Shown here: one piece after another, positions 8,806 to 53,145 of the stretch
Layout: the number at the start of each line of letters is the position of its first letter
Numbering within the stretch: the first letter of the stretch is position 1
From: a virus
Virus record (IMG/VR): IMGVR_UViG_3300031463_000001
Location: 60,899 to 124,898 of that record
DNA length: 64,000 bases
Direction: 5' to 3' (one strand)
Notes under the pieces: generated by a model
Told to the model about the DNA's origin: nothing
Database searches by the model: none
What the model saw: only the letters and a program-made list of their open reading frames with translations
Position numbers and translations under genes: made by a program

Positions 8806-9289
8806 CATTTAATTTATTTATCTCTTTTAAGAAATTAACATAATCAGTCAAATAAAGAAGATCACTAATTATAATCTTCTCACCTTTAATGAATCTATCC
8901 TTTAAAATTTTTCTAGCATACAAATATGACTCAGTAGCAAAATGGGAGATAACCTCTTCCCCTTTAGGAAAGGGACCTTTTAAAATATTCTCAGCATAAT
9001 TAAGAGCATTTATATGATCGCTAGCAATAGCCTCTTCTCCTTTAGGCCACGGACCTTTTATAATTTTAGCAACATACATATGAGTGACATGAGTGTTTTG
9101 AATAATGATATCTTCCCACTCTTCCTTTACTCTACCTTTAACTATTCTTTCTGCATAACGTTCTACCAACCATGGATTTTTGACTATTGGGATTAAAGCT
9201 TCGGCTAATTCTTTATTTTTCTTATTAATAGCGTCTTCCAAAATTTCTCTTGTTTTATTTGGATCTTTTAACAAATCCACTATATTCAT
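8771..9289 (-). CDS. Repeat-protein family member
   Basis: N-cap, repeats and C-cap; ATGA overlaps at both ends. Confidence 0.92.
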   Translation of the reverse strand: MNIVDLLKDPNKTREILEDAINKKNKELAEALIPIVKNPWLVERYAERIVKGRVKEEWEDIIIQNTHVTHMYVAKIIKGPWPKGEEAIASDHINALNYAENILKGPFPKGEEVISHFATESYLYARKILKDRFIKGEKIIISDLLYLTDYVNFLKEINKLNEFLKDHPEVKL

Positions 9290-9642
9290 AATTTAACCTC
9301 TGGATGATCTTTTAAGAACTCATCTAATTTATTTATTTCTTTAAGAAAATCCACATACTCATTTAACCACATTGACTTTATTATTACACCTTCTCCTTTA
9401 ATAAAAGGTTTATGTAAAATGTCTATAGCATAGGAACAAGAACTTTGCGGATCTTGAGCAATAATATTTTCCCACTCATCTTTAACTGGTTTTTTTATTA
9501 GGTAAGCATAACCATAAGTAAGCCAAGGATCTTTGGCCACTGGAACCAACAATTCGGCTAATTCTTTATTTTTATCTGCAAGGGCATCTTCTAATATTTC
9601 TCTAGCTTTATCAGAATCTTTTAACAAATCCTCTATATTCAT
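9286..9642 (-). CDS. Repeat-protein family member (short)
   Basis: N-cap, two repeats, C-cap. Confidence 0.92.
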   Translation of the reverse strand: MNIEDLLKDSDKAREILEDALADKNKELAELLVPVAKDPWLTYGYAYLIKKPVKDEWENIIAQDPQSSCSYAIDILHKPFIKGEGVIIKSMWLNEYVDFLKEINKLDEFLKDHPEVKL

Positions 9643-19329: not shown

Positions 19330-20196
19330 ATGGAAATAGAAAGAATACTAAGAGACCCCACAATATTAGAGAAAGGTTATACAGTGAAGGATGCAAGATT
19401 GAGGAAACTGATAAAACAGGCAACCGAAAAATATTATATGAATTATGGAAATTACAGTGGTGAGGAGTACGTGGAAGCATTTTCAGCTCACCTAGAAGCC
19501 GAAAAAGCATTTAAAAAAGCAGAAGATTTACTATTAGAGGATAAAGAGCTACCTCCAGAGATAATAGATGCAATAGCAAAAGTGCCTCGCTATGCAGAAC
19601 AATTAGGAGAACTTTTGATAGATTTTAATAAAGACGTACCCACTAAGATAAAGGATAGTATTAAATGGCATAGTGACTATTCTAATAATTTTATAGCACA
19701 TTTAATAGAAAAAGATAAAGACGTACCCCAAGAATTTATTGAAAAAATAAATGGGGGTAATTTATCCCGTTTATTTTTTAAATATTTAGAAAGAGGTAAA
19801 ACGATACCTCCCGAAGTTTTGGATAATTTTAGGCATGCCCCAACAACTTCACTAAAGGTAGCTTTAAAGCTTATAGACATGGGTAAAGAGATTCCTCTTC
19901 CCATATTAGAAGGAATAGGACAAGATCATTATGATGCTACAGAATTTGCAGATTATTTATTAGAAAAGAAAGGTGAAGTTGCTCCAGAACCAATTATAAG
20001 AGGATTATTGAAAGACTCTTTTGCAGCAGGTAATTATGCAGTAGATTTAGCAGAATTGGATATTCCTGTTCCTCAACTTTTGATTGATGGATTAGACCCT
20101 TTCCAATTAGGAAGATACAAAGAAGTATTAAGAATGAAGTTTAGTCAACAACATCCGGGTGAAGACCTTCCAGATTATTTGGATTATGGAAGTTAA
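19330..20196 (+). CDS. Divergent helical-repeat protein with a family-like N-terminus
   Basis: GGAGGT RBS before ATG 19330 (MEIERILRDP); about 27-aa repeats of the type L.DKDKDVP.EII..I. Confidence 0.75.
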   Translation: MEIERILRDPTILEKGYTVKDARLRKLIKQATEKYYMNYGNYSGEEYVEAFSAHLEAEKAFKKAEDLLLEDKELPPEIIDAIAKVPRYAEQLGELLIDFNKDVPTKIKDSIKWHSDYSNNFIAHLIEKDKDVPQEFIEKINGGNLSRLFFKYLERGKTIPPEVLDNFRHAPTTSLKVALKLIDMGKEIPLPILEGIGQDHYDATEFADYLLEKKGEVAPEPIIRGLLKDSFAAGNYAVDLAELDIPVPQLLIDGLDPFQLGRYKEVLRMKFSQQHPGEDLPDYLDYGS

Positions 20197-20199
20197 CTC

Positions 20200-20394
20200 C
20201 TAGCTAATGTACACTCTTTTGAGATTTCTTTTCCGAGATATTATATTTTTAAAAAAATCCTTAATCTCATCCAAAGTACCAACACATCGAACTATTCGAT
20301 CTTCGTCGGATACGACATATTTATACCAAGTACCTTCATTTTTTCGACTAATTCTATAAAACACATCTTTTTTGCAACTCATTCTAACCCCCAT
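20200..20394 (-). CDS. Hypothetical protein
   Basis: ORF in a minus-strand run. Confidence 0.45.
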   Translation of the reverse strand: MGVRMSCKKDVFYRISRKNEGTWYKYVVSDEDRIVRCVGTLDEIKDFFKNIISRKRNLKRVYIS

Positions 20395-20407
20395 TCACAA
20401 CATTCCT

Positions 20408-20737
20408 TTATCGAGATTTAATAGTAAAGATTGCAGGATTTATTACACCTTTTTCGTCACCCTTACCAAATTGTTTATTCCAATATAATTTAAACTCTTC
20501 TCCTCGAGGATGAAAGTGAGCTATAGCTGCAGCCATACAACCAGCTTGGAATCCTGTAATATCGCTATCTTTAATTCCTAATCTTTCAGCCTCTTCACAC
20601 GACATTCCTTTATCGAGATTTTCGCACACCTTAACAACAACATCAACGACAGCACTCCCATAAGGATCGTCGTTCTTTTGAACGTAATTTTCCCATTCAT
20701 GTTTTAACTCTTCAGTTTTTGTTGTTATCATTTTCAT
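20408..20737 (-). CDS. Hypothetical protein
   Basis: GGAGGAG RBS; globular-looking sequence. Confidence 0.7.
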   Translation of the reverse strand: MKMITTKTEELKHEWENYVQKNDDPYGSAVVDVVVKVCENLDKGMSCEEAERLGIKDSDITGFQAGCMAAAIAHFHPRGEEFKLYWNKQFGKGDEKGVINPAIFTIKSR

Positions 20738-20762
20738 TTTTTCTCCTCCGTTAAAGATTTTT

Positions 20763-20966
20763 TCATTTTGGTTCCTTACGAAATTTATCTATCTTATCAG
20801 CTAAAGAATTAAAGGAATCTACCTCAAACTTATACTCATCAGGAAGTCCATTTGTTAATATTATTAAGGAAGCATGGATGTGATTAGGATAACATGTTAT
20901 TCTCATTTCCCAATCTTTATATTTTCGTTTTAATTTATTTGTTATAATATCCATTTTATTTTTCAT
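20763..20966 (-). CDS. Hypothetical protein
   Basis: ORF in the operon. Confidence 0.5.
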   Translation of the reverse strand: MKNKMDIITNKLKRKYKDWEMRITCYPNHIHASLIILTNGLPDEYKFEVDSFNSLADKIDKFRKEPK

Positions 20967-20969
20967 AAT

Positions 20970-21233
20970 TTATCCTTTAAAATTTACTTTATATTCTTTT
21001 GGAGGAACATAATAATTAAAGATTGGTTCAAGTTCATTTTCATTTATTATTTGATTATTTTTATCTATGTGAACATAAAATGTTTTTGGAACTTTTGGAG
21101 GAACATAATACTGTTCACTAGATATTTTAACTCCATTTCTAGTAGAGAATGGACCTAGAAAACAGGCTCCTCCAGAATTTATAAACACGATAGCTTTATT
21201 GTAACACTTAATTTTAGACTTTTGTGGTTTCAT
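20970..21233 (-). CDS. Hypothetical protein
   Basis: AGGAGG RBS; YYVPPK occurs twice. Confidence 0.6.
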   Translation of the reverse strand: MKPQKSKIKCYNKAIVFINSGGACFLGPFSTRNGVKISSEQYYVPPKVPKTFYVHIDKNNQIINENELEPIFNYYVPPKEYKVNFKG

Positions 21234-21242
21234 AGTTTCCTC

Positions 21243-21416
21243 CTATTTTATGAATTTCCAACAAATCCAGATCCACACCAAAATCCAACTTAGCATCATA
21301 GTTGTTACAAATTTAACTCTTTCTTTATCACCCTCATTACTGATAAATAGTGTAGAAATTGACGCAAATATCAGCATTGTTATAATTCCTCCACCAATGT
21401 ATAGGAACCAATTCAT
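21243..21416 (-). CDS. Small two-helix membrane protein (57 aa)
   Basis: Not in the ORF track. AGGAGGTG RBS; MNWFLYIGGGIITMLIFASISTLFI...MMLSWILVWIWICWKFIK. Confidence 0.7.
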   Translation of the reverse strand: MNWFLYIGGGIITMLIFASISTLFISNEGDKERVKFVTTMMLSWILVWIWICWKFIK

Positions 21417-21430
21417 TTGAATTCACCTCC

Positions 21431-21832
21431 TTATATATAATTATCTTTTATATATTGTTTTTTAAGATAAAAAATTATTAAATAATTATCTTTCATTAAA
21501 ATCCATTTATAAATTCCGAAAAAATGTTCATTTATAATTTTTGAAATATTATAGTCTGTAAATTCTTGAACAATTTTTGCAAATTTGCTTGAAGTTAATA
21601 TTTCTCTTTGTTCATATTCTATTATTTGATGATCATTGTGTTTAAACATATTCACATTAGTGAATATTTTTTTCTTGTCAAGATATATTCCTTTTTCGGA
21701 AATTGTTATATGTTTTTTCTTTTTAAATATTTTTTTATTCCCCCAACAGTTAAGAACAAATTCTTCAAGATTATTTCTCCAGTTATTATTTTGAAGTTCT
21801 AACTCTAATCTTTTGTATTCTTTTTTATTCAT
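21431..21832 (-). CDS. Hypothetical protein
   Basis: AAGGAG RBS. Confidence 0.6.
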   Translation of the reverse strand: MNKKEYKRLELELQNNNWRNNLEEFVLNCWGNKKIFKKKKHITISEKGIYLDKKKIFTNVNMFKHNDHQIIEYEQREILTSSKFAKIVQEFTDYNISKIINEHFFGIYKWILMKDNYLIIFYLKKQYIKDNYI

Positions 21833-21875
21833 TTTCTCCTTATTACTCCTATTATTTCTTTTTGCATCTTACCGC

Positions 21876-22202
21876 CTATTCTAATGGTTCTATCTCATAA
21901 TTCAAGTTGATTGTTTTATCCATTACATATATAAACCACTTATAAAAAAGTTCTTTTTCAAGTTTAATTATATCCTTATTAGGAAGAGAAGATTTAATAA
22001 TGATAAAAAGTTCATCCCATCCTTCTTCAGGATCTATACAATATTCTAATTGAAGATGAGATTTATAACCTAAAATACTATTAATTTTTTGTGCAGAATC
22101 CAAAAGAATTTTAATTAATTTTTTATTTTGAGAAAGAAAATTCTTAATATCATCAGGATTCTTAAATTCAAAAATATTTTCAAGTTTTTCGACTTTGTTC
22201 AT
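21876..22202 (-). CDS. Hypothetical protein
   Basis: ATGA-coupled; DPEE..DELFIII motif. Confidence 0.6.
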   Translation of the reverse strand: MNKVEKLENIFEFKNPDDIKNFLSQNKKLIKILLDSAQKINSILGYKSHLQLEYCIDPEEGWDELFIIIKSSLPNKDIIKLEKELFYKWFIYVMDKTINLNYEIEPLE

Positions 22203-22687
22203 TTTTTCCTTTTTATATTATTCATTTTTCTTTTAAGTTTTTGCTTTAATTCAGAAATTTCTTTCAAAGCCTTATTAAAAAGGTCTTCACTTACCCATCG
22301 ACATTTTTCTGGAGTATTATCTTCGTAAACCAATACGTTCCAGTTACATCCTAATATTTCTACGTTTCTTATTGTATAAGAAAACAAAGCTCTTTCTATT
22401 TCGTTTCCTATTGTTATTATTTCTATTTTGGTATATCTAGCTTTTTTATTTATACTCTCTTTTATAAATTCTTTAAATCTTCCACAATTAGGATCTACCT
22501 CTCCTATATATGCCACATAACATTTCTTTACATCATAGCACCTCAAATCATTCCACTTTATAGCTCCATATTCAAATTTTCTTTCTATTTCTTTTTTTAC
22601 CTCTCCATTTTCATAGAAAGATTCTATTAATGCATTTATTTCTTCTTTAATTTTTTCTTCTTCTTTAATTTTTTCTTCTTCGTTCAT
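22199..22687 (-). CDS. Hypothetical protein
   Basis: AGGAGGT RBS; N-terminal EEEKIK tandem duplication. Confidence 0.6.
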   Translation of the reverse strand: MNEEEKIKEEEKIKEEINALIESFYENGEVKKEIERKFEYGAIKWNDLRCYDVKKCYVAYIGEVDPNCGRFKEFIKESINKKARYTKIEIITIGNEIERALFSYTIRNVEILGCNWNVLVYEDNTPEKCRWVSEDLFNKALKEISELKQKLKRKMNNIKRKK

Positions 22688-22770
22688 TTTAACCTCCTAT
22701 TACTTTTTTGGTTTTTTGGGATTAATTTTTTTTGAATATTCTTTTTTTGAATTCTTAAAGGGTGAACCTC

Positions 22771-23115
22771 CTAATTAATGCACTTCATAACATGTTTCAT
22801 AAATAAATAAGCAATCCAACAAACAAAGAAAATGCCAAAAATTAGATAAGGAACAAAAGAAAGAGGATAACCTAAAGTTTCCCATTTTGAAACCGAATTA
22901 TTTAAATGGGGAGAATTAAGGTAATTAAGGGAAAGCTTTTTGATTGAGTTATTGATAAGATCAAGTTCCTTAAATGTTTCTTTCTTAGCCATATTTAAAG
23001 GTTTCCCAGCGGAAACTTTATTTCGTATAACTTGAGCAGCCTGTCGAGCAGTATTCTGAACTATCTCCAAAGAATAAATTTCTTGACGAACTTTTACATC
23101 ATCCCTTTTATTCAT
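22771..23115 (-). CDS. Protein with a C-terminal transmembrane helix
   Basis: PLSFVPYLIFGIFFVCWIAYLF; GGAGG RBS. Confidence 0.65.
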   Translation of the reverse strand: MNKRDDVKVRQEIYSLEIVQNTARQAAQVIRNKVSAGKPLNMAKKETFKELDLINNSIKKLSLNYLNSPHLNNSVSKWETLGYPLSFVPYLIFGIFFVCWIAYLFMKHVMKCIN

Positions 23116-23204
23116 AAGCTTCCTCCAATAATGATATTACACATATGGTTTAGTTTTTTTTGCCCTTTCGAATTATCGTTTATGATTTAAATAGAAGAAT
23201 TAGT

Positions 23205-23813
23205 ATGAAAAAAGAAAGTAAAATAAATATTGTTGATTTATTAAAAGATCCAAATAAAGCTAAAGAAGTATTAACAATGGCTATAGATAATGGAAATAAA
23301 GAATTAGCCGAATTGTTAATTCCTATAGCCAAAGATCCCTATTTAACGTATAGTTATGCCTACTTAATAAATAAACCAGTTAAAGATGAGTTTGAAGATA
23401 TTATTGCTAAAAATTCTTTTTATTCTTATCAATATGCATTAGATATTTTACAGGGACCTTTCCTAAAAGGAGAAGATGCTATCTCTAAAAGTTCAGAATA
23501 TTCTTATAGATATGCCTTAAATATTTTACATAAACCATTTCCTAAGGGTGAGGATGCCATTACTAAAAATTCTTTTTATTCTTATCATTATGCTGCAGAT
23601 GTTTTACATAAACCATTTCCTAAAGGAGAAAATACTATTGCTGGAGATTCTTTTTATTCTTATAATTATGCTAAAGATATATTAAAAGATAGATTTATTA
23701 AAGGAGAAAAAACAATAATAAATTCAGAATGGTTAAATGATTATATTAGGTTTCTTAAAGAGATAAATAAACTAGATGAATTCTTAAATGATCATCCAGA
23801 GGTTAAATTATGA
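23205..23813 (+). CDS. Repeat-protein family member
   Basis: MKKESKINIVDLLKDP; NSFYSYxYA repeats; LDEFLNDHPEVKL. Confidence 0.92.
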   Translation: MKKESKINIVDLLKDPNKAKEVLTMAIDNGNKELAELLIPIAKDPYLTYSYAYLINKPVKDEFEDIIAKNSFYSYQYALDILQGPFLKGEDAISKSSEYSYRYALNILHKPFPKGEDAITKNSFYSYHYAADVLHKPFPKGENTIAGDSFYSYNYAKDILKDRFIKGEKTIINSEWLNDYIRFLKEINKLDEFLNDHPEVKL

Positions 23814-24166
23814 ATATATCAAAGTTGTTAAAAGATCCAAAAAAATTTGATGATTTTTTGTATCATGAAATTCAACATAACGATTTTTCAACATCTAGAA
23901 TACTTATTCCTTATACAAAAAATCCAGCAATTATTCACGCTTTTCTAAAAAAATTTAAAGTTAAAATTCCTTCATTAGAAAATTTAATTACTCAAAATCC
24001 ACATTTGGCATTAAGTTATATTGATAATGTTATTAAAGATCGCTGGCTTCCTGGAGAAGAAGCCATTCTTAAAAATGAAGAAGATTTGGAATATTATAAA
24101 GACTTCCTTAAATCTATTGGTAAACTAGACGAATTCTTAAAAGATCATCCAGAGGTTAAGAATTGA
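23810..24166 (+). CDS. Repeat-protein family member
   Basis: MNISKLLKDP...LDEFLKDHPEVKN. Confidence 0.9.
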   Translation: MNISKLLKDPKKFDDFLYHEIQHNDFSTSRILIPYTKNPAIIHAFLKKFKVKIPSLENLITQNPHLALSYIDNVIKDRWLPGEEAILKNEEDLEYYKDFLKSIGKLDEFLKDHPEVKN

Positions 24167-24221
24167 ATTCTAAAATTGAAGGTATTTCATTTTTTGAGAA
24201 AATTAATTTGAAGAGGAATAA

Positions 24222-25034
24222 ATGAAAAAACTTATAAAATTAATAAAAGAAGGTAAGATAAATATTGGAGAAATATTAAAAAATCCTTTAATATTAAAGA
24301 GTTACAAATGGGAAGATGTTGAAGCATATGGAAAAGAAGTACTTGAAAGAACCCAAAAAACTGAAAAAGAATTAGAAGAAACCTTAACTGAAGCGTGGGA
24401 AAAATATGGTAATGAATATTTTTTAATTCCAATTGAGGAGTTGGGTTTAAATGAGTCTGTAATTAGATTACTTAAAAGTGAAGGAATTAAGAATGTAAGT
24501 GAATTAGCTTCTCTTACTGAGGATGATTTAAGAAATGTAGTGTATCTATCTGAAAAAACTATAGATCTTATAAAAGAAAAATTGAAAGAAATGGGATTAG
24601 AACTAGGAGAAGGAAAAGAGTTTGATGTTGAAAAAATGAATCCCTATAGAATAAATATCAAATTTGAGGAGTTATTGCATAATAAAGATGAAGAAAGGGC
24701 TACAAAACTTTTACCTTACATAGATAAACCAGACTTATTAGTTAATTATGCAATTAATTTTAATACTAAACTACCCCCAGAACAAGAACAAATAGTTGCT
24801 AAAAATCCTTATGCTTCATTAGCTTATGCACTTAAAGTATTAAAAGATAGATTTATTCTGGGAGAACCTTCAATAGTAAAAATGTATGATGAGATGAGAA
24901 GAAAGATGCCCCAAAAAGGAGAAGAAAACCTAATGGCTACTATACAGGCTCTTATTCATGAATATTTTATAATGCTAAATTCAGTAGGTAAGCTGGAAGA
25001 TTTTATGAAAGATTATCGGAATCTTTTTCATTAA
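24222..25034 (+). CDS. Repeat-family member carrying an RNA polymerase alpha-CTD-like domain
   Basis: PIEELGL...IRLLKSEGIKNVSELASLTEDDL...LSEKTIDLIKEKLKEMGLEL matches the alpha-CTD HhH consensus; flanked by family caps. Confidence 0.85.
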   Translation: MKKLIKLIKEGKINIGEILKNPLILKSYKWEDVEAYGKEVLERTQKTEKELEETLTEAWEKYGNEYFLIPIEELGLNESVIRLLKSEGIKNVSELASLTEDDLRNVVYLSEKTIDLIKEKLKEMGLELGEGKEFDVEKMNPYRINIKFEELLHNKDEERATKLLPYIDKPDLLVNYAINFNTKLPPEQEQIVAKNPYASLAYALKVLKDRFILGEPSIVKMYDEMRRKMPQKGEENLMATIQALIHEYFIMLNSVGKLEDFMKDYRNLFH

Positions 25035-25239
25035 CTTTTTTGAATATATTAACCAACTCGATTTCGTTAAATTCTTCGTTTGTTTCATTAATCTTGTATT
25101 TTATGTTTTCTAATCCTTTCACACTATAGTTAATTAGATTTGACATTTGATTAAATGTTAAATCCATATTTCCTACACCGGGTTCAATTCTATTAAATGT
25201 ACAATTCATATATTTATTTTTAAATTCATCTTTGTTCAT
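25003..25239 (-). CDS. Hypothetical protein
   Basis: Likely start MNKDEF after GAGGAG. Confidence 0.5.
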   Translation of the reverse strand: MNKDEFKNKYMNCTFNRIEPGVGNMDLTFNQMSNLINYSVKGLENIKYKINETNEEFNEIELVNIFKKVNEKDSDNLS

Positions 25240-25359
25240 ATTTTCTCCTCTTTTTTTAAGATATGAAAACGAATTTTTGGTATATTTAAAGTTAAACATT
25301 TTAACCAAAATTTTAATGCTTTAAATAAATTAGAGGTAGCAAAATATTTTTCAGGTTTT

Positions 25360-25716
25360 TTATCTCGCGCTATTTCTATAACTATTTTCATTAATCATTC
25401 TCCTCAATTTTGCCTTTATTTCATTTAATGAAGATATTAATTTATTTATTTTTTTAAAATTTTTTGCTTGTTTTTCAGTTAAAACTAAAATATCATCCTC
25501 TTTTTCAAACGAATAAGTAAGATTATCTAATGTAATTTTGTCATTTAAAAGTTTTCCTTCATATATATGTATAGGAATAGATGGGTTACAAATATCTTTA
25601 ATTACTTCATGTAGTATAATTTTATCTATGGCTTTAAATTTTTTAACTTCTTTCATACTTTTTAAACAAGTTTTTTTAAAAATTATTTCCCCAATAAAAT
25701 TAGGAAAGTTGTTCAA
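25360..25716 (-). CDS. Hypothetical protein
   Basis: ORF overlapping the upstream gene. Confidence 0.5.
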   Translation of the reverse strand: MNNFPNFIGEIIFKKTCLKSMKEVKKFKAIDKIILHEVIKDICNPSIPIHIYEGKLLNDKITLDNLTYSFEKEDDILVLTEKQAKNFKKINKLISSLNEIKAKLRRMINENSYRNSAR

Positions 25717-26269
25717 TTGTGCGAGAATCCCAATTTTCTAAATCCCAATTTATTACATATTCAATAGTTTTAAGTTGGTTGGTACTTTTATAGAATTTTA
25801 GGGCAGGTATATGATATATTTTATAACTAGGTTTAATAAAGAAAATGGATGTTTGATATAAAGTTCTTTTAAATAAACAAGATTTTAATATTTCTAGAGG
25901 TTTCTCAAAATTAGGACACACCACAAAGTTTACACCCTGAAAATAAGAAAATCCGTCCGAAATAACTAAACCAAAAGTTATAAAAGATCCTTTTTCTTTT
26001 ACTTTAAAATGAAGTTCAATAACAAAAGAAGAATTTATTTTTATTACATTTTTAGGAATTTCTATTTTTGATTTATTCAGAAAATCTACAAAAAAAGATG
26101 AACCTAAAGGTTTATGATTAAAAGGTTTACCATTATCAAAATAAATATAAAGACCTTCATTAACTATAGGAAGATTTTTAAAATCAGGAAAAGTTACAAA
26201 TATAGGAATTAAAGCATTATTTTTTCTAATCTTAAATCTGATTATTGGAATATTTTTAAGTCGATTCAT
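25700..26269 (-). CDS. Hypothetical protein
   Basis: 189-aa ORF. Confidence 0.6.
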   Translation of the reverse strand: MNRLKNIPIIRFKIRKNNALIPIFVTFPDFKNLPIVNEGLYIYFDNGKPFNHKPLGSSFFVDFLNKSKIEIPKNVIKINSSFVIELHFKVKEKGSFITFGLVISDGFSYFQGVNFVVCPNFEKPLEILKSCLFKRTLYQTSIFFIKPSYKIYHIPALKFYKSTNQLKTIEYVINWDLENWDSRTIEQLS

Positions 26270-26561
26270 TAGATGACAAAAAACTTAATACTTTTTCTAG
26301 ATAATTGAGAGAGGTATTTATTTGATTTAATTCTTTTTTAATATTTAATTTTTTTTGAATTAATCCTTTTAAAGAAGTTTCCATATATAAATTTCTTTCT
26401 CTGTCTGTTCGTATATTTAAGTAAACCTCATCTTTTCTTAATATATTAAATTGAGCGTCCAAAATTTCAATTTCTATATCTAATATTTGGTTTTCTAACT
26501 TACACTTTTTTTCTCCTAATTCTTTATATTCATCTAATAATTTTTTTAATTCATTTGTCAT
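26256..26561 (-). CDS. Coiled-coil protein
   Basis: Heptad-rich helical sequence; preceded by the shared upstream motif. Confidence 0.6.
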   Translation of the reverse strand: MTNELKKLLDEYKELGEKKCKLENQILDIEIEILDAQFNILRKDEVYLNIRTDRERNLYMETSLKGLIQKKLNIKKELNQINTSLNYLEKVLSFLSSNEST

Positions 26562-26718
26562 ACTCGATTTATTAAAATTGAAAACGACAAATTTTCAGTT
26601 AAGTTTGGTTTTCCCAAAAATATATGTTGAAATTCACTAAAACGCGAAATTTAGTTCATGAAAATGTGGGTAGCCTTAAAAAATAAAGAGAATTAAGTAA
26701 CCAATTTTTAATAAAATC

Positions 26719-27072
26719 ATGTCTGTTACTAAATATCAACTATTAAATTATTTGTTTTTAATAGGAGATTTTGAAAAAATAAAAGAAAAATGGGATACAT
26801 ATAAAGAAGACTGGTTTATTGTAAGATCTTTAATGAATAATGCTTTATTTTATAAAAAATTGGAGTTAGTTTATTTTTTCTTAGAAAAGAATATAGATTA
26901 TCCTCAAGAAGACTTATTCCATTACGCACTTAAGTATCAAGAGGATAAATTATGGAATTTGGTAAAAAATAAAGAAGACTTTATACCTCTTATCAAAGAA
27001 GAGGCATACAAAAATAAGGATATGTGGTTAATTTCTAAAATAGAAGAATTAGAAAAAATTAAGGAGGTTTAA
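26719..27072 (+). CDS. Small helical (ankyrin-like) protein
   Basis: LMNNALFYKKLELVYFFLEKNID and LFHYALKY segments. Confidence 0.55.
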   Translation: MSVTKYQLLNYLFLIGDFEKIKEKWDTYKEDWFIVRSLMNNALFYKKLELVYFFLEKNIDYPQEDLFHYALKYQEDKLWNLVKNKEDFIPLIKEEAYKNKDMWLISKIEELEKIKEV

Positions 27073-27404
27073 TGAATAAGCATTGGAGAAATAAAGGGAT
27101 TAATATGTTTATATTGATTTCACCTTTATTAATCATATCATTAATTTTACTTATTCTTTTTCATAAAAGTAAAGTTAATTCAAGTTATTATGGTAAAGTT
27201 TTTTCTAAATCCATACGGTCAAACCATACGTATGTTGTTTTAGCATTAGAAGGGATTGATGAAGAATTTAAATTTGATAATTCCGATTTTTTTCAAGATG
27301 ATCTTGTTGTTGGAGAATATATAGAAGTTAATTGCGATAGTAATGGAGAATGTAAACCAGTATTTTTAAACCAATCTAAAAGGGTGGAAATGGTAATTGA
27401 GTGA
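27072..27404 (+). CDS. Membrane-anchored protein
   Basis: N-terminal hydrophobic helix; AGGAGG RBS. Confidence 0.65.
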   Translation: MNKHWRNKGINMFILISPLLIISLILLILFHKSKVNSSYYGKVFSKSIRSNHTYVVLALEGIDEEFKFDNSDFFQDDLVVGEYIEVNCDSNGECKPVFLNQSKRVEMVIE

Positions 27405-27641
27405 TTTGCGAAAAAGCTTCTAATAAAAAATAAAGGTATTAAGATTTAAGATTAATAATCTAAGAAATAATAATAATAATAATAAATAATAAATAATAAT
27501 ATATATAAATAAAAGATTTAAAGATTAATGATTTAACGATAATCGAAGACGACTCCACCCACTTCCACTTAATTCTCACTTACCCACTCACCTACTCTTA
27601 TCTTAAACTGCTTGTCGAACTCGATTTAATTGAATTATGAT

Positions 27642-27690
27642 GGTCGGACTATCGAAGGGTTTCGTCCCTAGAGAATGCCGACCTTTTTTT
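27642..27690 (+). terminator. Extended hairpin plus T7 tract (terminator, attenuator or small RNA)
   Basis: GGTCGG...AGGG-TTTCGT-CCCT...CCGACC-TTTTTTT. Confidence 0.55.
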
Positions 27691-27810
27691 ATTTAAGGGC
27701 AAAAATTTCCGAGTTTAGTTGTAAAAATATTCTTGGTCCGAAGGATAATGAGTTTAAGAATCTGGAAATTCGAAAGCCCAATTTTTTAATAAAATTTTTG
27801 TAAATAATTT

Positions 27811-29199
27811 ATGATTAGTTTGAATGTAGGTAATGTTGATACTACAATAAAAGATGCTCCTATTGAAGTAATTAAAGCGCTTGATGAAGCTTTATCTATA
27901 GAAGTTCCAGGTGCATTTTTTGCTAAAAACAAGATTAATTATTTTTGGGATGGTAAGAAACATTTATATTCAGTTAAGAAAGGAACTTTTCCTACAGGGT
28001 GTATTCGTAGAGTTTTAAATGTGTTAAACCGAATGGGGTACGAATACCAAATAGAAGATTTAAGAGAAATACCCACTCAACTAGAACGACCTCTTTATTT
28101 AAAAGCTCACCTAAGAGATTATCAAGAACAAGCCATAGATACTTTAATTAATCGACAACGAGGAGTTGTACAACTAGCTACAGGAGGAGGAAAAAGTTTG
28201 ATATTAGCGGGTTTATGCTCCAAATTAAATTTACCCACTTTAGTATTAACCCACAGACAGGAATTAATGTATCAACTAGAAGAAACCTTTATAAAAAATT
28301 TGAGAGGTAAAGGTTCAAGAAAACCCTTAATAGGTTTAGTAGGTGATGGCAATACTAAATGGGGTCATATAACCATAGGGATGATGCAAGCTATGGATGT
28401 AAAGAAATATATTAAAGAGTTGAGTAAGATTAAGATGGTTTTGGTGGACGAATGTCATCATTTACCTTGTAATACTATGGTAGACATAATGAAGTATTTA
28501 GATAATGCATATTATAGGTTTGGTGTTTCAGCTACTAGTTTTAGAGAGGATGGGATGGATTTAATGATTGAAGCTTACCTAGCTCCTATATATTATAATC
28601 TTAGTAGTGCAGAGTTAATAAGGATGGGTTATTTGAGTCCTATTAAAGTTTTTTTTATTCCATTTAATGATACCAAAACTTATAAAAATGATTTAACTTA
28701 TGTTCAATTATATAGTGAGGCAATAGAACAAAACGAAAAGAGGAATAATTTGATAGTTGAGGTGGTGAAGAGAATATTGGCTAAAAACAAAACTTGTTTA
28801 GTGGCTGTATCGAGGATAGAACATGGAAAGATATTAACTCAAAAAATTAAATCTTTTTATCCTGAAGTTGAATTTGTGGAAGGGAAAGATAAAAGTGAAA
28901 GAAGAAAAAAGATTATTAAAAAATTAAATTTAAAGGAAATTAAATGTGTAGTATGTACTACAGTTTTTGGAGAAGGGATAGATATACCTACCCTTGAAGT
29001 ATTAGTTTCTGCTAAAGCTCAAGATAGTGGTATTGATGCCCTTCAACTTGCGGGTAGAGTAATGAGACGAACAGAAGATAAGATTGAGGGTTGGGTGATA
29101 GATTTTTTTGATATGCATCATAAGTTTTTTAGGCGACATGCAATAAAAAGAAAAAAAATATTTAAAGAAGAAAAATTTGAGGTTGTGGAGGCTTTATGA
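27811..29199 (+). CDS. SF2 DNA helicase (UvsW/XPB-like)
   Basis: LRDYQ Q-motif, ATGGGKS, VDECH, SAT, EGIDIP, QLAGRVMR. Confidence 0.92.
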   Translation: MISLNVGNVDTTIKDAPIEVIKALDEALSIEVPGAFFAKNKINYFWDGKKHLYSVKKGTFPTGCIRRVLNVLNRMGYEYQIEDLREIPTQLERPLYLKAHLRDYQEQAIDTLINRQRGVVQLATGGGKSLILAGLCSKLNLPTLVLTHRQELMYQLEETFIKNLRGKGSRKPLIGLVGDGNTKWGHITIGMMQAMDVKKYIKELSKIKMVLVDECHHLPCNTMVDIMKYLDNAYYRFGVSATSFREDGMDLMIEAYLAPIYYNLSSAELIRMGYLSPIKVFFIPFNDTKTYKNDLTYVQLYSEAIEQNEKRNNLIVEVVKRILAKNKTCLVAVSRIEHGKILTQKIKSFYPEVEFVEGKDKSERRKKIIKKLNLKEIKCVVCTTVFGEGIDIPTLEVLVSAKAQDSGIDALQLAGRVMRRTEDKIEGWVIDFFDMHHKFFRRHAIKRKKIFKEEKFEVVEAL

Positions 29200-29447
29200 A
29201 ATATATGATAAAAGATTTTGAAAATAATATTTTGTTTAAGAGTGATTTTTTAGATGATTTAATTCCTTTAAATATGGAGGGTAGGTTGTTTGTGGAAGAT
29301 AGTGAAGTGTGTTATGTTTATACGTTTGAATCTACTACAATTAGAAGTGTGTTGATGAAAATTAGAAACAAAATAAAAAATATTGAGGTTCGAAAGCATA
29401 ATCTCGAAAAAGAAATGAAATTGTTGGAAGTTTTGGAAACTTTGTAA
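29196..29447 (+). CDS. Hypothetical protein
   Basis: ATGA-coupled to the helicase. Confidence 0.6.
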   Translation: MKYMIKDFENNILFKSDFLDDLIPLNMEGRLFVEDSEVCYVYTFESTTIRSVLMKIRNKIKNIEVRKHNLEKEMKLLEVLETL

Positions 29448-29450
29448 GTT

Positions 29451-29465
29451 TGTCGAGATTGATTT
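29451..29465 (+). promoter_or_regulatory. Putative phage promoter motif T(G/A)TCG-N5-GATTT (representative copy)
   Basis: TGTCG-AGATT-GATTT, 11 nt before the ATG; similar copies at 501, 774, 7704, 19298, 23174, 26575, 27613 and 53134, each oriented with the downstream gene. Confidence 0.6.
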
Positions 29466-29476
29466 CTTTAAAGAAG

Positions 29477-30119
29477 ATGAATATAGCTGATTTATTAAAA
29501 AATCCAGAAAAACTAAATGATGTTTTTAGAGATGTATTAGATAAGGGAGATAAAGAATCAGCTAGGATATTACTTCCATATGTAAGTCCTTTTTTTTTAT
29601 TATAAGTATTTAGAACAGCTTGGAGAAAGGGTTCCCCTTGAATTCGAATCTAAATTATTTGGTTTGTCAGATTTTTCAAAAGGAGGATATGAGTATGTAA
29701 ATGTTATTTCAGGGAAGGATTTATATGATTCTTTTCTTAAAGATTGGGGAGATAAATATGCAAATAAAATAGTTAATGCATTAGCTAATTCTTATGATTA
29801 TGGGCCTCTAATAGAGGGTGCAGTTAAAACAACTAAAGAATATTCAGATCGAGTTTTTTTACCTCTTTTGAATTATGATTTTGATAGGACTAGTGATTCT
29901 TGGGGAACATTATTAACAATTCTTTTAACTAATTATAATTACAGATTACCTCCGGAGATATTATCTAAATTGGGTAAAGATGATTTAAAAGCATTAAAGA
30001 AATATTTAGGAGTTTATGAGAAATTAGTAGAGGAAAGAGAGGGGGATAGATATGCGGAAGATTCATATGACTTAATTAATGAATCTTATAAGTATTTGAA
30101 AAATAATTTAAGAAAGTAA
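29477..30119 (+). pseudogene. Family N-cap fused to an unrelated C-terminal domain, frameshifted at a T9 run (29590-29598)
   Basis: ATG 29477 MNIADLLKNP...LLPYVSPFFLL*; T8 would read through into ORF 29664-30119. Confidence 0.75.
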
Positions 30120-30171: not shown

Positions 30172-30728
30172 ACATAGAAGATTTATTAAAACATCCAGAA
30201 AAAGCAAGAACGTTTTTGGACAAGGCTATTTTTGGTGGAAACAAAAAATTAGCTGAAATTTTAATTCCAATAGTTAAACATCCTTATTCAACTTATTTAT
30301 ATGCAAAAGAAATAGTTAAGGGAAAAATAAAAGATGAATGGGAATATATTATTGCTCAAGATCCTTATGCTTCTCTTGATTATGCCTTTAACATTCTAAA
30401 AGGTCCATTTCCAAAAGGAGAAGATGCAATTGCTAGAGATTCATATACTTCTTATAATTATGCTGTTATTTTAGAAAGACCGTGGCCAAAGGGAGAGGAT
30501 GTTATTGCTAGAGATCCAAGATTTGCTTATTATTATGCTAGATATGTGTTGAAGGATAGATTTCCAAAAGGAGAAAAAGAAATTATTAGTAGTGAGATTA
30601 CTGATCCGGGTAATGATTTTGGTGAAAATGGTGAATCAGGTTTTTCTTCTTATGTTAAGTTTTTGAAATCAATAAATAAATTAGACGAATTCTTAAAAGA
30701 TCATCCGGAGGTAAAAGATAGAGTATGA
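30168..30728 (+). CDS. Repeat-protein family member
   Basis: N-cap, repeats and C-cap. Confidence 0.92.
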   Translation: MNIEDLLKHPEKARTFLDKAIFGGNKKLAEILIPIVKHPYSTYLYAKEIVKGKIKDEWEYIIAQDPYASLDYAFNILKGPFPKGEDAIARDSYTSYNYAVILERPWPKGEDVIARDPRFAYYYARYVLKDRFPKGEKEIISSEITDPGNDFGENGESGFSSYVKFLKSINKLDEFLKDHPEVKDRV

Positions 30729-31189
30729 ATATAGAAGATTTATTAAAACATCCAGAAAAAGCACAAATGGCTTTGCGAGAAGCTATTTGGAATAATGATG
30801 CAAAATTAGCAGAAGCTTTAATACCAATAGCAAGAGATCCACATTTAACTCTTAATTATGCTCAAAATATAGTTAAGGGAAAAGTTAAAATTGAGTTTGA
30901 AGATATTATAGCCCGAGATGGAGAAGCTTCTTTTTATTATGCTTATGAAGTCTTAAATGGTCCCTTTCCTAGAGGAGAATATGCAATTGCTGAAAATGAA
31001 GATCTTTCATTAGATTATGCGATTAAAGTATTAAAGGATAGATTTCCAAAAGGAGAAGAAGCAATTATATATGTAGCTTTAAAGCATGATGATGATGTAT
31101 ATTTATGGAGATATACGGATTTTCTTAAAGAGATTGGTAAACTAGACGAATTCTTAAAAGATCATCCTGAGGTAAAAGATATAGAATGA
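30725..31189 (+). CDS. Repeat-protein family member
   Basis: N-cap, repeats and C-cap. Confidence 0.92.
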   Translation: MNIEDLLKHPEKAQMALREAIWNNDAKLAEALIPIARDPHLTLNYAQNIVKGKVKIEFEDIIARDGEASFYYAYEVLNGPFPRGEYAIAENEDLSLDYAIKVLKDRFPKGEEAIIYVALKHDDDVYLWRYTDFLKEIGKLDEFLKDHPEVKDIE

Positions 31190-31710
31190 ACATAGGTGAT
31201 TTACTAAAAGAAGGAGCGGATAGTGTTTTCGATAAAGCAATAAAAGAAAAAAATAAAGAGTTAGCAGATTTTCTAATTAAGTTTATAAAAGATCCTTTTC
31301 TTCTTTTCGATTATGCAGCTAAATTTAATGAAAAATTAAAACCTGAATTTGAAGATATTATTGCTAAAAATTGGGATACATCCTTTTATTATGCACTTCA
31401 TTTTAAAAATCCTTTTCCTAAAGGTGAAGATATAATGGCAAAAGATTTGTATACTGCCTATCATTATGCAGCTGATGTTTTACAAGGACCATTTCCAAAA
31501 GGTGAACCTATAATTTCTCAATTTCCATATTCATCATATTATTATGCTAAAAGGATATTGCATGATAGATTTCCAAAAGGAGAAAAAGCAATTATTGATA
31601 GCAAAGATCAAGAAAATGATGAAGATTATTTTAGACTCTATATTAAATTTTTAAAATCCATTAATAAACTAGATGAATTCTTAAAAGATCATCCAGAAGT
31701 TAAATTATGA
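31186..31710 (+). CDS. Repeat-protein family member
   Basis: N-cap, repeats and C-cap. Confidence 0.92.
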   Translation: MNIGDLLKEGADSVFDKAIKEKNKELADFLIKFIKDPFLLFDYAAKFNEKLKPEFEDIIAKNWDTSFYYALHFKNPFPKGEDIMAKDLYTAYHYAADVLQGPFPKGEPIISQFPYSSYYYAKRILHDRFPKGEKAIIDSKDQENDEDYFRLYIKFLKSINKLDEFLKDHPEVKL

Positions 31711-32897
31711 ATATAGAAGATTTGTTAAGGGATCCAAATAGGGTTAAAGAATTATTAGATGAAGTTATTAATAATGGAAACAAAAAATTAGCTAAAGTTT
31801 TACTTCCATTAGTTGAAAAAGAGTCAACTAGATATGGTTACATAGAGTCATTATTGAAGGGTAGAGAAATTGTAGCTGATTTCGAATCACGATTACCTGT
31901 TTTGATTAAACAGTATAAGGCTCACAATCCAGAATTATCTGAAAGTGAAGCCGAAGCTAAGATTCGTGAATTGAATCAATATGATCCAACGGGTTTAAAA
32001 GCTACATATACACCCTGGATTGTAAAACAGTATTTGGAAGATTCATCATTCGATTTGGATTTAGCTAAACAAGTTTTGAAGGATCTTGAAAAGGTTGTTT
32101 TACATAAGAAACTACCTGCAGGATTCGATATTGGAAAGTTTAACTTAAATGAATTGAAATCGAAACTTCAACCAATACTTGAGCCAATTGAAGAGTCGGA
32201 AAAGGAGAAGGAAGAGATTAAAAAAGAAGGTCCAATAGGTCAATCATTAATCTCTGAAGAGGGTTATGAAATTATTGAAGTTACTGATCCAAAAGATAGT
32301 GTAAGATTCTGTAAAAAATATCATATTAGGTCTTGGTGTGTAAAGGATTTGGAGTATGCAGAGTTTTACGTTCCTCTCTACTTCGTTTTAAAGAATGGTT
32401 CGCCAAAAGGTGCATGGTCAGAATATGATAAAAAGCTCAGTAATCGACAAGATTTAGATGAGTGGGATCTTGATGAAAGAGATTTTATAGCAAAACTATT
32501 AAGAAAAGTTAGACCTAATTTAACAATAAAGACAAAAGAAGAAATGAAAAGGGAAGCTTTGAATTCTCCGGAGAAAGCTTATAATTATGCATTTAAGGTT
32601 AAAGGAAGATTTCCAGAAGGAGAACCTATAATAGCAAAAAGTCCTAAATATGCTTATTATTATGCAAGAGATGTTATTAAAGAAAGATTTCCTAAAGGGG
32701 AGCCTGCTATAGCAAAAGATTTTTATTTTGCGTGTCTGTATGCAAAATTTGTTATTAAAGGAAGATTTTTAGAAGGAGAAGCTGTAATAATAAATTCAAA
32801 TTATTTTGATGATTATGTTGAGTTTCTTAAAGAAATAAATAAACTAGATGAGTTCCTAAAAGATCACCCAGAAGTTAAAAATTACAAGTCTTTTTAA
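31707..32897 (+). CDS. Repeat-family member with a large inserted domain
   Basis: N-cap, then about 230 aa of unrelated sequence (DPTG...YTPWIVK...SWCV...PLYFV), then repeats and C-cap. Confidence 0.88.
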   Translation: MNIEDLLRDPNRVKELLDEVINNGNKKLAKVLLPLVEKESTRYGYIESLLKGREIVADFESRLPVLIKQYKAHNPELSESEAEAKIRELNQYDPTGLKATYTPWIVKQYLEDSSFDLDLAKQVLKDLEKVVLHKKLPAGFDIGKFNLNELKSKLQPILEPIEESEKEKEEIKKEGPIGQSLISEEGYEIIEVTDPKDSVRFCKKYHIRSWCVKDLEYAEFYVPLYFVLKNGSPKGAWSEYDKKLSNRQDLDEWDLDERDFIAKLLRKVRPNLTIKTKEEMKREALNSPEKAYNYAFKVKGRFPEGEPIIAKSPKYAYYYARDVIKERFPKGEPAIAKDFYFACLYAKFVIKGRFLEGEAVIINSNYFDDYVEFLKEINKLDEFLKDHPEVKNYKSF

Positions 32898-50855: not shown

Positions 50856-51275
50856 GTGACTTATATATCGAGATCATTTTCTTTTCCAGCTGCACATAGA
50901 TTGATGTACCATAAAGGTAAATGTAGAAATCTACATGGACATCGTTATGAGGTAACTGTATTTGTAAAAGGTAAAGATAATACTTTTGCAAATAAGCATA
51001 ATTTTGTATTTGATTTTAATGCTTTTAAAATTATTATAGGTGATTGGATTGATGAGCATTTAGATCATACTACTTTAGTAAGTGAAAAAGATATTGAATT
51101 ATTAGAGATAGTTAAAAAATTAAATTCAAAGTATTATGTATTAGAAGATAGTAGCTCAGAAATGATTGCACTTCATCTTAAAAAAGTTTTTCAAAATTTA
51201 TTAAAAAATAGAGGATTGAAAGTATTTAAAGTAATTGTTTCCGAGTCACCAAATACAAATGCAATTATTGAGTAA
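50856..51275 (+). CDS. queD: 6-carboxy-5,6,7,8-tetrahydropterin synthase
   Basis: F.AAHRL, GKC.NLHGH, DF, LDH, SSE, V.ES. Confidence 0.93.
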   Translation: MTYISRSFSFPAAHRLMYHKGKCRNLHGHRYEVTVFVKGKDNTFANKHNFVFDFNAFKIIIGDWIDEHLDHTTLVSEKDIELLEIVKKLNSKYYVLEDSSSEMIALHLKKVFQNLLKNRGLKVFKVIVSESPNTNAIIE

Positions 51276-51870
51276 ACGTCAAATATCTATGCAAACTTTA
51301 GCTAAGTTTGATGTTTTTGAAATTGAAAAAGGGAAATGTAATTATTTTGGCGATTCTATAAAAGTTGATGATATTAGGGAAGGAGTTTATTTTCCTCTTT
51401 ATTATTTTAATAAAAAATTGTTGGGGTATGCATTAAGAAAATTACATGATTCAAATGAAAAGTGGGTTTATTCAAAATCGTTTAAAAGAAATCATTTTTT
51501 ATATGGGTTTGTTGAAAATTTTAAAGCTATTAAAGAAAAAAAAGAAGTTATTTTGGTGGAAGGATTATTTGATTGTTTAAAATTGGTAGATGAAGGTTTT
51601 ACTAATACTGTAAGTAGTTTTGGAACTTTATTTACTTTTTATCATTTTGTATTATTATATCCATTAGTTAATAAAATAATTTTGATACCTGATTCGGATG
51701 AAGGTGGAAATAAAATGATAGAAAAAGTTAAGGAAATAATAAATAATAAATTAGAATTAGATATAATAAAATTACCTAAAAATTATGATCCAGATGATTT
51801 TTTAATTAAATATGGGAAAAAAGCTTTTTCAAATTTGATTTTAAAAAAAGGAGGAGAGTATGCTAAGTGA
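51235..51870 (+). CDS. DnaG primase catalytic (TOPRIM) part, lacking the zinc finger
   Basis: LYG, ILVEG.FD, N.V...GT, DSDEGG, DPDD. Confidence 0.88.
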   Translation: MFPSHQIQMQLLSKRQISMQTLAKFDVFEIEKGKCNYFGDSIKVDDIREGVYFPLYYFNKKLLGYALRKLHDSNEKWVYSKSFKRNHFLYGFVENFKAIKEKKEVILVEGLFDCLKLVDEGFTNTVSSFGTLFTFYHFVLLYPLVNKIILIPDSDEGGNKMIEKVKEIINNKLELDIIKLPKNYDPDDFLIKYGKKAFSNLILKKGGEYAK

Positions 51871-52162: not shown

Positions 52163-52799
52163 ACCCTCTCGTATAGAAAAAGTTTTTTTGGATACTTTAA
52201 ATGTTTCATGGGGAAATACTGAAGTATTAAATTCTTCGGGTTGGTATTTTTTATATTATGGGAATTTGAATTGTTTAAGAAACTTTTTAACTTTTTTACC
52301 TTCTAAATTGGATGCTTACAAATTATGGCAACCTTCTTATAAAGTAAAAAAAGAAAAAAATAGATCAGTAATAGAAACTAAACGATTACTTTTTCCAGGT
52401 TATGCTTTTTTTAAGACTTTAGATATAATGAACGTGGATTGTTTTATAAAGGATTATTTTAAAGATTTTTATTTTTATTTTTTAAAGAAAGGAAGAGAAT
52501 TTGCAACGTTAACTGCTGAGGAAGAAGAATGGATTTTAAAATTAGAAGAAATTTGGACTAAAATAGTAGAAGAACATTGTAAATTTAAAAAAGGAGATGT
52601 TGTAAGGTTAAAAAATGCTTATTGGGGAAATTTAGTAGGTAAAGTAGTAGATATAGATGAACCTAAACAAATTGCAACGGTAGAGTTTGTATTTTTTCAA
52701 ACTCGTACTATATTGTTTAAAGTAGATTTGAATACTTTGGAAAATTTAACTCCACCTGAGGAATTTTTAGGAATTCTTTTGGATGAAAAAGATTATTAA
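52149..52799 (+). CDS. NusG/RfaH-family transcription antitermination factor
   Basis: WY..., LLFPGY.F (NGN domain); FKKGD.V.L....G..G.V (KOW). Confidence 0.85.
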   Translation: MEENKPSRIEKVFLDTLNVSWGNTEVLNSSGWYFLYYGNLNCLRNFLTFLPSKLDAYKLWQPSYKVKKEKNRSVIETKRLLFPGYAFFKTLDIMNVDCFIKDYFKDFYFYFLKKGREFATLTAEEEEWILKLEEIWTKIVEEHCKFKKGDVVRLKNAYWGNLVGKVVDIDEPKQIATVEFVFFQTRTILFKVDLNTLENLTPPEEFLGILLDEKDY

Positions 52800-53145
52800 A
52801 GATCCCTTTTGGGATTATGAAAATGATATCCTAAACGATTTTTCTAGAGTAGAACTTAGTTTAGGTGAATTTACTAATTTTTTAAATTTTGATTTAACAG
52901 ATGAAGATATAAATAAAGAATTGAAAAAAAGGCGTTTTTGTCATCAAGAATCTCAAAAATTAATGAAATATGTGATTGATAATTTTAATGAAAAACAAAT
53001 AAAAATTTTTATTTATTTTTTTATTTTTGAGTTAACACAGGTTGAAATAGGTGAATTGATGAAAATTTCTCAAGCTTATGTGTCTTTTATATTAAAAACC
53101 ATGAAAAAAAAGATTTTAGATGATTTCTATGCTTGTAAAAAATGA
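52783..53145 (+). CDS. Sigma-70 region-4-like HTH protein
   Basis: EKQ..IF.......LTQ.EIG..M.ISQ.YVS. Confidence 0.8.
   Translation: MKKIIKDPFWDYENDILNDFSRVELSLGEFTNFLNFDLTDEDINKELKKRRFCHQESQKLMKYVIDNFNEKQIKIFIYFFIFELTQVEIGELMKISQAYVSFILKTMKKKILDDFYACKK

Follow-up and report, generated by a model that had tools for sequence, protein, structure and literature searches.

In this study, we describe a gene of an uncultured, AT-rich phage which encodes, between two other modules, the C-terminal domain of the bacterial RNA polymerase alpha subunit (alpha-CTD). The gene is an open reading frame (ORF) at positions 24222-25034 (+ strand, ATG start, 270 aa) of a 64,000-nucleotide stretch of DNA, hereafter the window, which is the right half (positions 60899-124898) of the 124,898-base IMG/VR virus record IMGVR_UViG_3300031463_000001. 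Judged from its sequence, the ORF is a three-module mosaic, made of an N-terminal helical module (codons 1-61, 24222..24404, +), an alpha-CTD with a helix-hairpin-helix, SAM-like fold (residues 64-130, 24411..24611, +) and a divergent unit of a helical-repeat (alpha-solenoid) family with a degenerate C-cap (residues 132-270, 24615..25031, +). We tentatively read it as a recently assembled accessory gene, whose alpha-CTD would serve as a protein-interaction mimic of the alpha-CTD of the host.

The alpha-CTD of the phage protein

A first-pass annotation, made from the sequence alone, had noticed an alpha-CTD-like domain in this ORF; the motifs it quoted are present in the translation, and profile, sequence and structure comparisons bear the assignment out. 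The Pfam family RNA_pol_A_CTD (PF03118) matches residues 64-123 with profile positions 8-67 of 67 (E 4.9e-9, 36.2 bits; curated gathering cut-off 23.8 bits). It is the only family to pass in the Pfam scan of the ORF, HHH_5 remaining under its cut-off at 25.1 bits, and a six-frame search of the genome finds it in a single copy (39.9 bits). Phmmer against the PDB sequences gave 56 distinct chains at E <=10, nearly all of them RNA polymerase alpha. The best match was the Thermus thermophilus alpha-CTD 1doq_A (E 4e-8, residues 67-129 versus 6-68 of 69), and further matches came from Mycobacterium and Bacillus (E ~5e-7 to 1e-6) and from Escherichia coli (E ~0.006-0.09).

The fold was predicted with AlphaFold2 from an alignment of 27 rows, none of them an alpha-CTD homologue. 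The model has a mean predicted local confidence (pLDDT) of 83.4, with values of 56-70 for residues 1-70, 81-91 for residues 71-130 and 84-98 for residues 141-270. The predicted model superposes well on solved alpha-CTDs. Among 48,161 chains compared with VIA-align, Bacillus subtilis 1z3e_B ranked first (Z 10.9, root-mean-square deviation (rmsd) 1.8 Å, 67/67 residues, 39% identity) and E. coli 4mex_A second (Z 10.6, rmsd 1.4 Å, 65 residues), followed at lower ranks by helix-hairpin-helix domains of Rad51 type and of Y-family polymerases and by SAM domains (Z 6.4-9.1). In Foldseek the top rows were all alpha-CTD, with target-normalised template-modelling (TM) scores of 0.70-0.87 at E 0.03-0.1 and no row at E 0.001. 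The domain is 32% identical to that of E. coli and 39-43% to the B. subtilis, Thermus and Streptomyces chains; its ~65 residues, ~40% identical to several phyla, were judged uninformative for a phylogeny. Sequence and model together identify residues 64-130 as a genuine alpha-CTD, well beyond chance.

The N-terminal domain of the alpha subunit (alpha-NTD) is missing: neither of its families (PF01000, PF01193) was found in the Pfam scan of the ORF. As predicted from its sequence, the protein therefore cannot be an RNA polymerase subunit. Against the eight rpoA equivalog models of NCBIfam it reaches 17-43 bits, the cut-offs being 228-523.

Residues were mapped by BLASTP to E. coli K-12 RpoA (21/66 identities, pairwise E 4e-7, numbering offset 186), and those aligned belong to what we take to be the 265, 261 and 287 determinants of the alpha-CTD. 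The '265 determinant', which contacts UP elements, presumably comprises R265, N268, N294, G296, K298, S299 and E302. Five of these seven residues are changed in the phage domain (R265 to S79, N268 to R82, N294 to Y108, G296 to S110 and E302 to L116), one is kept (K298 as K112) and one is exchanged conservatively (S299 to T113); K297 is replaced as well, by E111. The altered appearance of the R...N and NLG.KS positions for DNA contact, which had been pointed out before, is confirmed by this mapping. Other surface features are retained, namely D258/D259 as E72/E73, K271 as K85 and T285-E-V-E-L as T99-E-D-D-L103. E261 is exchanged for G75, glycine being the commonest residue there in other alpha-CTD-like repeats. 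The phage domain holds 8 K+R versus 15 D+E (net charge -7, pI 4.5), compared to 9 K+R versus 10 D+E (pI 5.7) in the same stretch of E. coli.

The phage domain thus resembles the alpha-CTD of bacterial RpoA in scoring above the PF03118 gathering score end to end, in its predicted fold, and in the acidic positions 258/259, the T285-E-x-E-L motif and K271. It differs in the missing alpha-NTD, the five replaced contact residues, its higher acidity and its position between an N-terminal module and a solenoid unit. Replaced contacts, acidity and the missing alpha-NTD would be easier to reconcile with a mimic that binds proteins than with a canonical binder of UP elements.

Assembly of the gene from three modules

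The origin of the N-terminal module can be traced within the same genome. A segment of 212 bases (-29 to +183 relative to the start codon) is by blastn 96.2% identical to the start of a gene at record positions 51058-51528 (-), outside the window. It begins with the 29 bases upstream of the ORF (24193..24221, +), which include a Shine-Dalgarno-like GAAGAGG, and continues through codons 1-61. The second gene encodes a protein of 156 aa, which shares 60 of the 61 residues of the module, has an unrelated C-terminal part and is not matched by the hidden Markov model (HMM) of the helical-repeat family. Among the 183 duplicated coding bases there are five differences, four synonymous and one K/E, in addition to three upstream mismatches; the 4:1 synonymous excess gives a small-number hint of purifying selection. 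The identity breaks off sharply at codon 62, two codons ahead of the Pfam match; setting aside a 211-base terminal repeat, the genome self-comparison shows no other long stretch of >90% identity. Since homologues of the 156-aa protein, of corresponding length (157 aa; P0003, P0038) sit on other contigs, the 156-aa gene appears to be the likelier donor of the module. As the start codon and the ribosome-binding site lie inside the repeat, the protein would stay the same after an inversion across it.

Sequencing data support the junction. A 5857-base Logan contig from run X1 covers 24347-25200 with zero differences, has the base that distinguishes the query at codon 52 and spans the junction 24404/24405 between the first module and the alpha-CTD by 58 bases, and a second contig of X1 holds the paralogous copy, its match stopping at 24404. 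As X1 may be the source sample, this agreement is that of a second assembler and not of a second sample. Two other runs, X2 and X3, which bear the label hot springs metagenome, contain the duplicated 5' segment with 9 differences in 212 bases, together with the cap junctions; for the alpha-CTD and the solenoid they gave nothing that reaches 85% identity over most of the length.

The third module belongs to a family that is greatly expanded in this phage. The family HMM, built on the short paralogues, matches 33 ORFs covering 18,363 bases or 14.7% of the genome (31 ORFs by phmmer of the genome ORFs), in arrays at ~23.7-26.0, 44.6-48.2, 66.7-73.2, 84.1-85.9 and 91.1-93.8 kb of the record. A typical member starts with MNIxDLLKDP, continues with one to six repeats of ~26 residues (YxYAxxVLKGxFPKGExxI) and ends with KLDEFLKDHPEVK. 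On the alpha-CTD protein the HMM covers residues 140-267 with positions 9-143 of 148 (65.5 bits, E 6.4e-20), and in a MAFFT alignment the remainder of the family, after the N-cap, aligns to residues ~142-270. Typical members reach 130-360 bits, and only two of the 33 are weaker than the alpha-CTD protein (22 and 41 bits).

The first-pass annotation had placed the alpha-CTD between N-cap and C-cap elements of this family, which holds in part. INIGEILKNP (residues 13-22, 24258-24287, +), inside the N-terminal module, is aligned by MAFFT with the family N-cap, and a solenoid unit does follow the domain. On the other side, the family HMM scores -0.7 over residues 14-42, the motif also occurs in the 156-aa gene, which shares the module of residues 1-61 and has no family HMM match, and the C-cap is degenerate, reading KLEDFMKDYRNLFH versus the consensus KLDEFLKDHPEVK. 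It contains no GAGG, and no ATGA-coupled family gene follows the stop codon (25032..25034, +), unlike in most family genes: 16/23 other family genes inspected end in an ATGA overlap which leads into an N-cap gene. Such stop/start junctions lie, for example, at window positions 23810-23813, 9286-9289, 9639-9642, 30725-30728 and 31186-31189. The codons for H-P-E-V-K in the C-cap (CAT CCA GAG GTT AAA) include the GAGG at which translation of the following gene is primed as its ribosome-binding site, and for this reason the conservation of the caps may be partly due to translational coupling rather than to protein function.

In Pfam and NCBIfam no family passes the per-domain test for the repeat family, HTH_35, USH1C_N and others failing per stretch; a neighbouring paralogue matches phrog_28193 (unknown function) at 1.8e-7. 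Compared with the PDB, the solenoid unit resembles generic solenoids at Z ~7, under the level meaningful for helical repeats, and the nearest Atlas structure clusters are hypothetical proteins of Uroviricota (TM 0.57-0.59), then TPR, ANK and ARM-like proteins. With the ankyrin, TPR and HEAT-like solenoid families of viruses the family has in common the capped helical repeats, the massive expansion and solenoid structural neighbours; it is distinguished by its own repeat motif, near-invariant caps, ATGA chaining and a ribosome-binding site encoded in the cap.

A second mosaic is present at window positions 31707-32897 (+). It encodes 396 aa and consists of an N-cap, a 240-aa non-family insert, three repeats and a C-cap. 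P0155, a protein of 298 aa on a related contig, has an N-cap and insert 86% identical over residues 1-284, and beyond residue 284 it shows no similarity to the 396-aa gene. Atlas assigned the insert to PcfJ (feature score 0.90, the family being found on 33% of cluster members, TM 0.35-0.39), a weak lead to a PcfJ-like module. The earlier suggestion that the family scaffold carries host-takeover cargo agrees with these data as far as module shuffling is concerned, given the two mosaics; nothing marks either cargo as serving host takeover.

Possible mimicry and its alternatives

Relatives of the whole protein were sought at large scale. A word-index search of 5.8 billion clusters returned the protein itself, in a cluster of one member from one contig, and two proteins with the N-terminal module. 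HMMER against 1.84 billion representatives gave 425 matches at E <=0.001. Among the 149 non-self matches listed, 98 carry family repeats only and 49 alpha-CTD-like repeats only (mostly 2-7 in tandem), one has the N-terminal module only and one has none of these at threshold; not one of the 149 combines an alpha-CTD with the solenoid family. Closest by total score, among the matches listed, are tandem alpha-CTD arrays that are not RpoA. Repeat by repeat they score 22-34 bits, no different from true RpoA. These cellular arrays (for example P0008, P0014, P0018, P0032 and P0097) are the best matches listed to residues 60-135 and differ from the phage protein by 2-6 PF03118 matches each versus a single copy and by the lack of the solenoid module (0/49).

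No RpoA is found among the best 150 representatives, down to a score of 43.1 bits, and a region-restricted word-index search gave three true RpoA, all with E >=1 and identities of 35-38%, the best being at 37-38%. The alpha-CTD segment has a GC content of 27.6% and a GC content at third codon positions (GC3) of 12.9%, other phage genes having a GC3 of 10-21%. Since no RpoA reaches 43 bits and the composition is phage-like, there is no sign of a recent capture from a host rpoA gene, and this origin was rejected.

Alpha-CTDs in phages are of a kind already annotated in UniProt, though uncharacterised. In the viral structure library BFVD the top rows are UniProt entries named 'RNA polymerase, alpha subunit, C-terminal' (E 0.09-3, none <=0.001), among them A0A6J5L490 and others of uncultured Caudovirales, Rhodococcus phage Finch and Mycobacterium phage Mithril. 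They are likewise phage-encoded, of alpha-CTD fold and without an alpha-NTD. In contrast to the present protein, they measure 105-240 aa and none has a solenoid module, the likeness being at the level of the fold only. A literature search of listings and abstracts returned no functional study of these annotated proteins and no characterised phage that imitates the alpha-CTD in trans.

The alpha-CTD is where class I activators, UP elements, Spx, NusA and sigma region 4 mainly dock, and Alt and ModA of phage T4 are known to modify it. In the phage gene, an N-terminal helical module, copied from or common to another phage gene, has been joined to the rest by recent recombination. The domain keeps the fold together with the acidic and TE-DL surface features and has lost R265, N268, N294, G296 and E302. 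In the mimicry that we tentatively favour, the protein might then titrate or re-route a partner that docks on the alpha-CTD; candidates are activators, anti-alpha factors of the Spx type, NusA and sigma region 4. A second binding surface would come from the solenoid module. In its favour are the fold, the absent alpha-NTD, the replaced contacts, the pI of 4.5, the good ribosome-binding site and the intact frame. The decoy for host factors proposed in the first-pass annotation is compatible with the sequence and with the model. Unlikely, in our judgement, is the bolder version of this reading, a trans-acting 'anti-alpha' decoy devoid of DNA contacts, in which the solenoid family would moreover constitute a recombination-driven adaptor platform for grafts of host-derived domains (the alpha-CTD and possibly the PcfJ-like insert).

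The phage probably relies on host RNA polymerase, because an RNA polymerase beta-like gene and a sigma region 2 were sought in the record and neither was found. Several observations weigh against mimicry. At the rated completeness of 76%, transcription genes of the phage could have escaped notice. The 189 alpha-CTD-like repeats compared from array proteins other than RpoA show R 86 times and K 21 times at position 265, and G 107 times and S 20 times at position 296; the phage domain deviates from the majority but is not alone in this. Since departures at both positions are so common in arrays, the changes in the phage domain are not specific evidence for mimicry. The kept K298, the threonine at S299 and the arginine at position 268 leave a backbone or minor-groove contact possible. 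The fusion is a singleton, a one-member cluster in about 15 billion sequences, and PF03118 is above its cut-off in none of the 15 IMG/VR records with family genes, so that no conservation argues for a function. Finally, no host was obtained from the RpoA scores, the relatives of phage polymerase and helicase, tRNAs or the binned contigs.

It is doubtful, though plausible, that the domain acts as a generic helix-hairpin-helix DNA-binding module which tethers the solenoid to AT-rich phage or host DNA. The tandem arrays closest to it by total score, among the matches listed, presumably bind DNA, K112 and T113 stand at K298 and S299, and R82 is one turn of the helix away from where R265 was lost. 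The phage genome is ~73% A+T, presumably the kind of DNA preferred by the alpha-CTD, and the fold also matches the helix-hairpin-helix domains of Rad51 and of Y-family polymerases at Z 7-9. Such a tether is at odds with the loss of R265, which we take to be the residue inserted into the minor groove, and of the hairpin glycine G296, with a net charge of -7 and a pI of 4.5, and with a single copy instead of an array. A recent recombinational chimera out of the hyper-recombining family arrays, an evolutionary trial or decaying gene with no selected function, would account for the sharp end at codon 62 of the 96% identical segment, for a family unit among the most divergent of the 33 with degenerate caps and a lost coupling junction, for the singleton protein and the second mosaic in the same genome, and for related hot-spring contigs which have the duplicated 5' segment without the alpha-CTD part. 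We nevertheless hold it to be rather unlikely: the frame of 270 codons is intact though stop codons are frequent in such DNA, the alpha-CTD core is well preserved with a confidently predicted fold, the phage-like composition speaks against a fresh import, and four differences in the duplicated part are synonymous versus one non-synonymous. Very improbable is a SAM-like oligomerisation or scaffold module with no tie to transcription. Many SAM domains do match the model at Z 6.4-7.2, and Pfam SAM_EPH does so weakly (E 0.027), but alpha-CTDs match clearly better (Z 10.6-10.9, 32-39% identity) and only PF03118 passes its cut-off.

Mimicry of the host alpha-CTD would find in this protein a clean test case, with the fold kept and the DNA-contact residues changed, and the datable 212-base duplication documents module shuffling in a hugely expanded phage repeat family. 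If the function were DNA tethering only, or none, the gene would be a case of ordinary phage mosaicism.

Genome, neighbouring genes and related contigs

The virus record is classed 'linear'. Its two ends form a 211-base direct repeat (window 63790-64000, i.e. record 124688-124898, versus record 1-211; 99.5% identity), and the genome may for this reason be complete at ~124.7 kb with terminal redundancy, despite the class and the completeness rating. The GC content of the window is 27.5% (22-38% in 2-kb windows). The phage encodes a family-A DNA polymerase, a DnaB-like helicase, a UvsX-like recombinase, a ribonucleotide reductase and a second helicase; a tRNA search of the phage found none. Judged by these comparisons it is distant from every cultured phage: its DNA polymerase is <=28% identical to that of any of them, and blastn and tblastn of the region against 50,697 phage records gave no significant match. 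The helicase has relatives in IMG/VR at 26% identity only.

The alpha-CTD gene sits in a region of small ORFs and strand switches beside the family arrays. It is the last gene of a three-gene cassette on the + strand, with minus-strand genes on both sides, and is preceded by two canonical family genes (23205..24166, +; 202 aa and 118 aa, with ATGA overlap). Its ribosome-binding site is good and its 270-codon frame is intact in DNA of 26-28% GC. PHROGs matched neither the ORF, the best E being 0.032, nor nine neighbouring ORFs, no Rfam family was found in window 20000-30000, and in a promoter and terminator scan sites were no commoner than in shuffled sequence. A convergent ORF of 101 aa (window 25003-25308, -) overlaps the final 32 bases of the gene. 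Its sole family match, RNA_pol_Rpb4, is sub-threshold (E 0.005, 17.5 bits versus 25.6) and probably due to chance.

Further away, an ORF of 120 aa (window 52783-53145, +) resembles sigma-70 region 4 in residues 47-112. It falls short of the cut-offs of Pfam Sigma70_r4 (21.6-22.9 bits versus 24.1) and of TIGR02937 (34.6 versus 42.9); the ORF may encode a regulator with sigma region 4 only or a very small sigma-like factor. Sigma region 4 and the alpha-CTD touch each other at promoters, which makes this ORF of interest here. A complex prediction of alpha-CTD residues 60-137 with the 120-aa protein scored 0.00, a value which counts neither way.

Family genes occur in the 15 IMG/VR records at 61% identity at best. 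A scan of IMG/VR with the whole protein gave no relative bearing the fusion, and none of five related records (0/5) matched residues 1-140. Two of the 15 records, L030 (1453-1935 (-) and 282-965 (-)) and, in the same order, L031, contain a separate ORF of 160 aa with a weakly alpha-CTD-like C-terminus (16.6 bits), two genes upstream of a family-repeat protein; it is a possible unfused counterpart, too weak to count. Family genes were also seen on contigs of 2.7 kb, 5.4 kb and 12.8 kb binned to metagenome-assembled genomes of Omnitrophota, Pacearchaeota and Nanopusillaceae (P0037, L032, L033). These contigs are probably mis-binned phage fragments, or they may be a clue to an unusual host. On a 323-kb contig, very large proteins of 1464-2253 aa are built of the same repeat.

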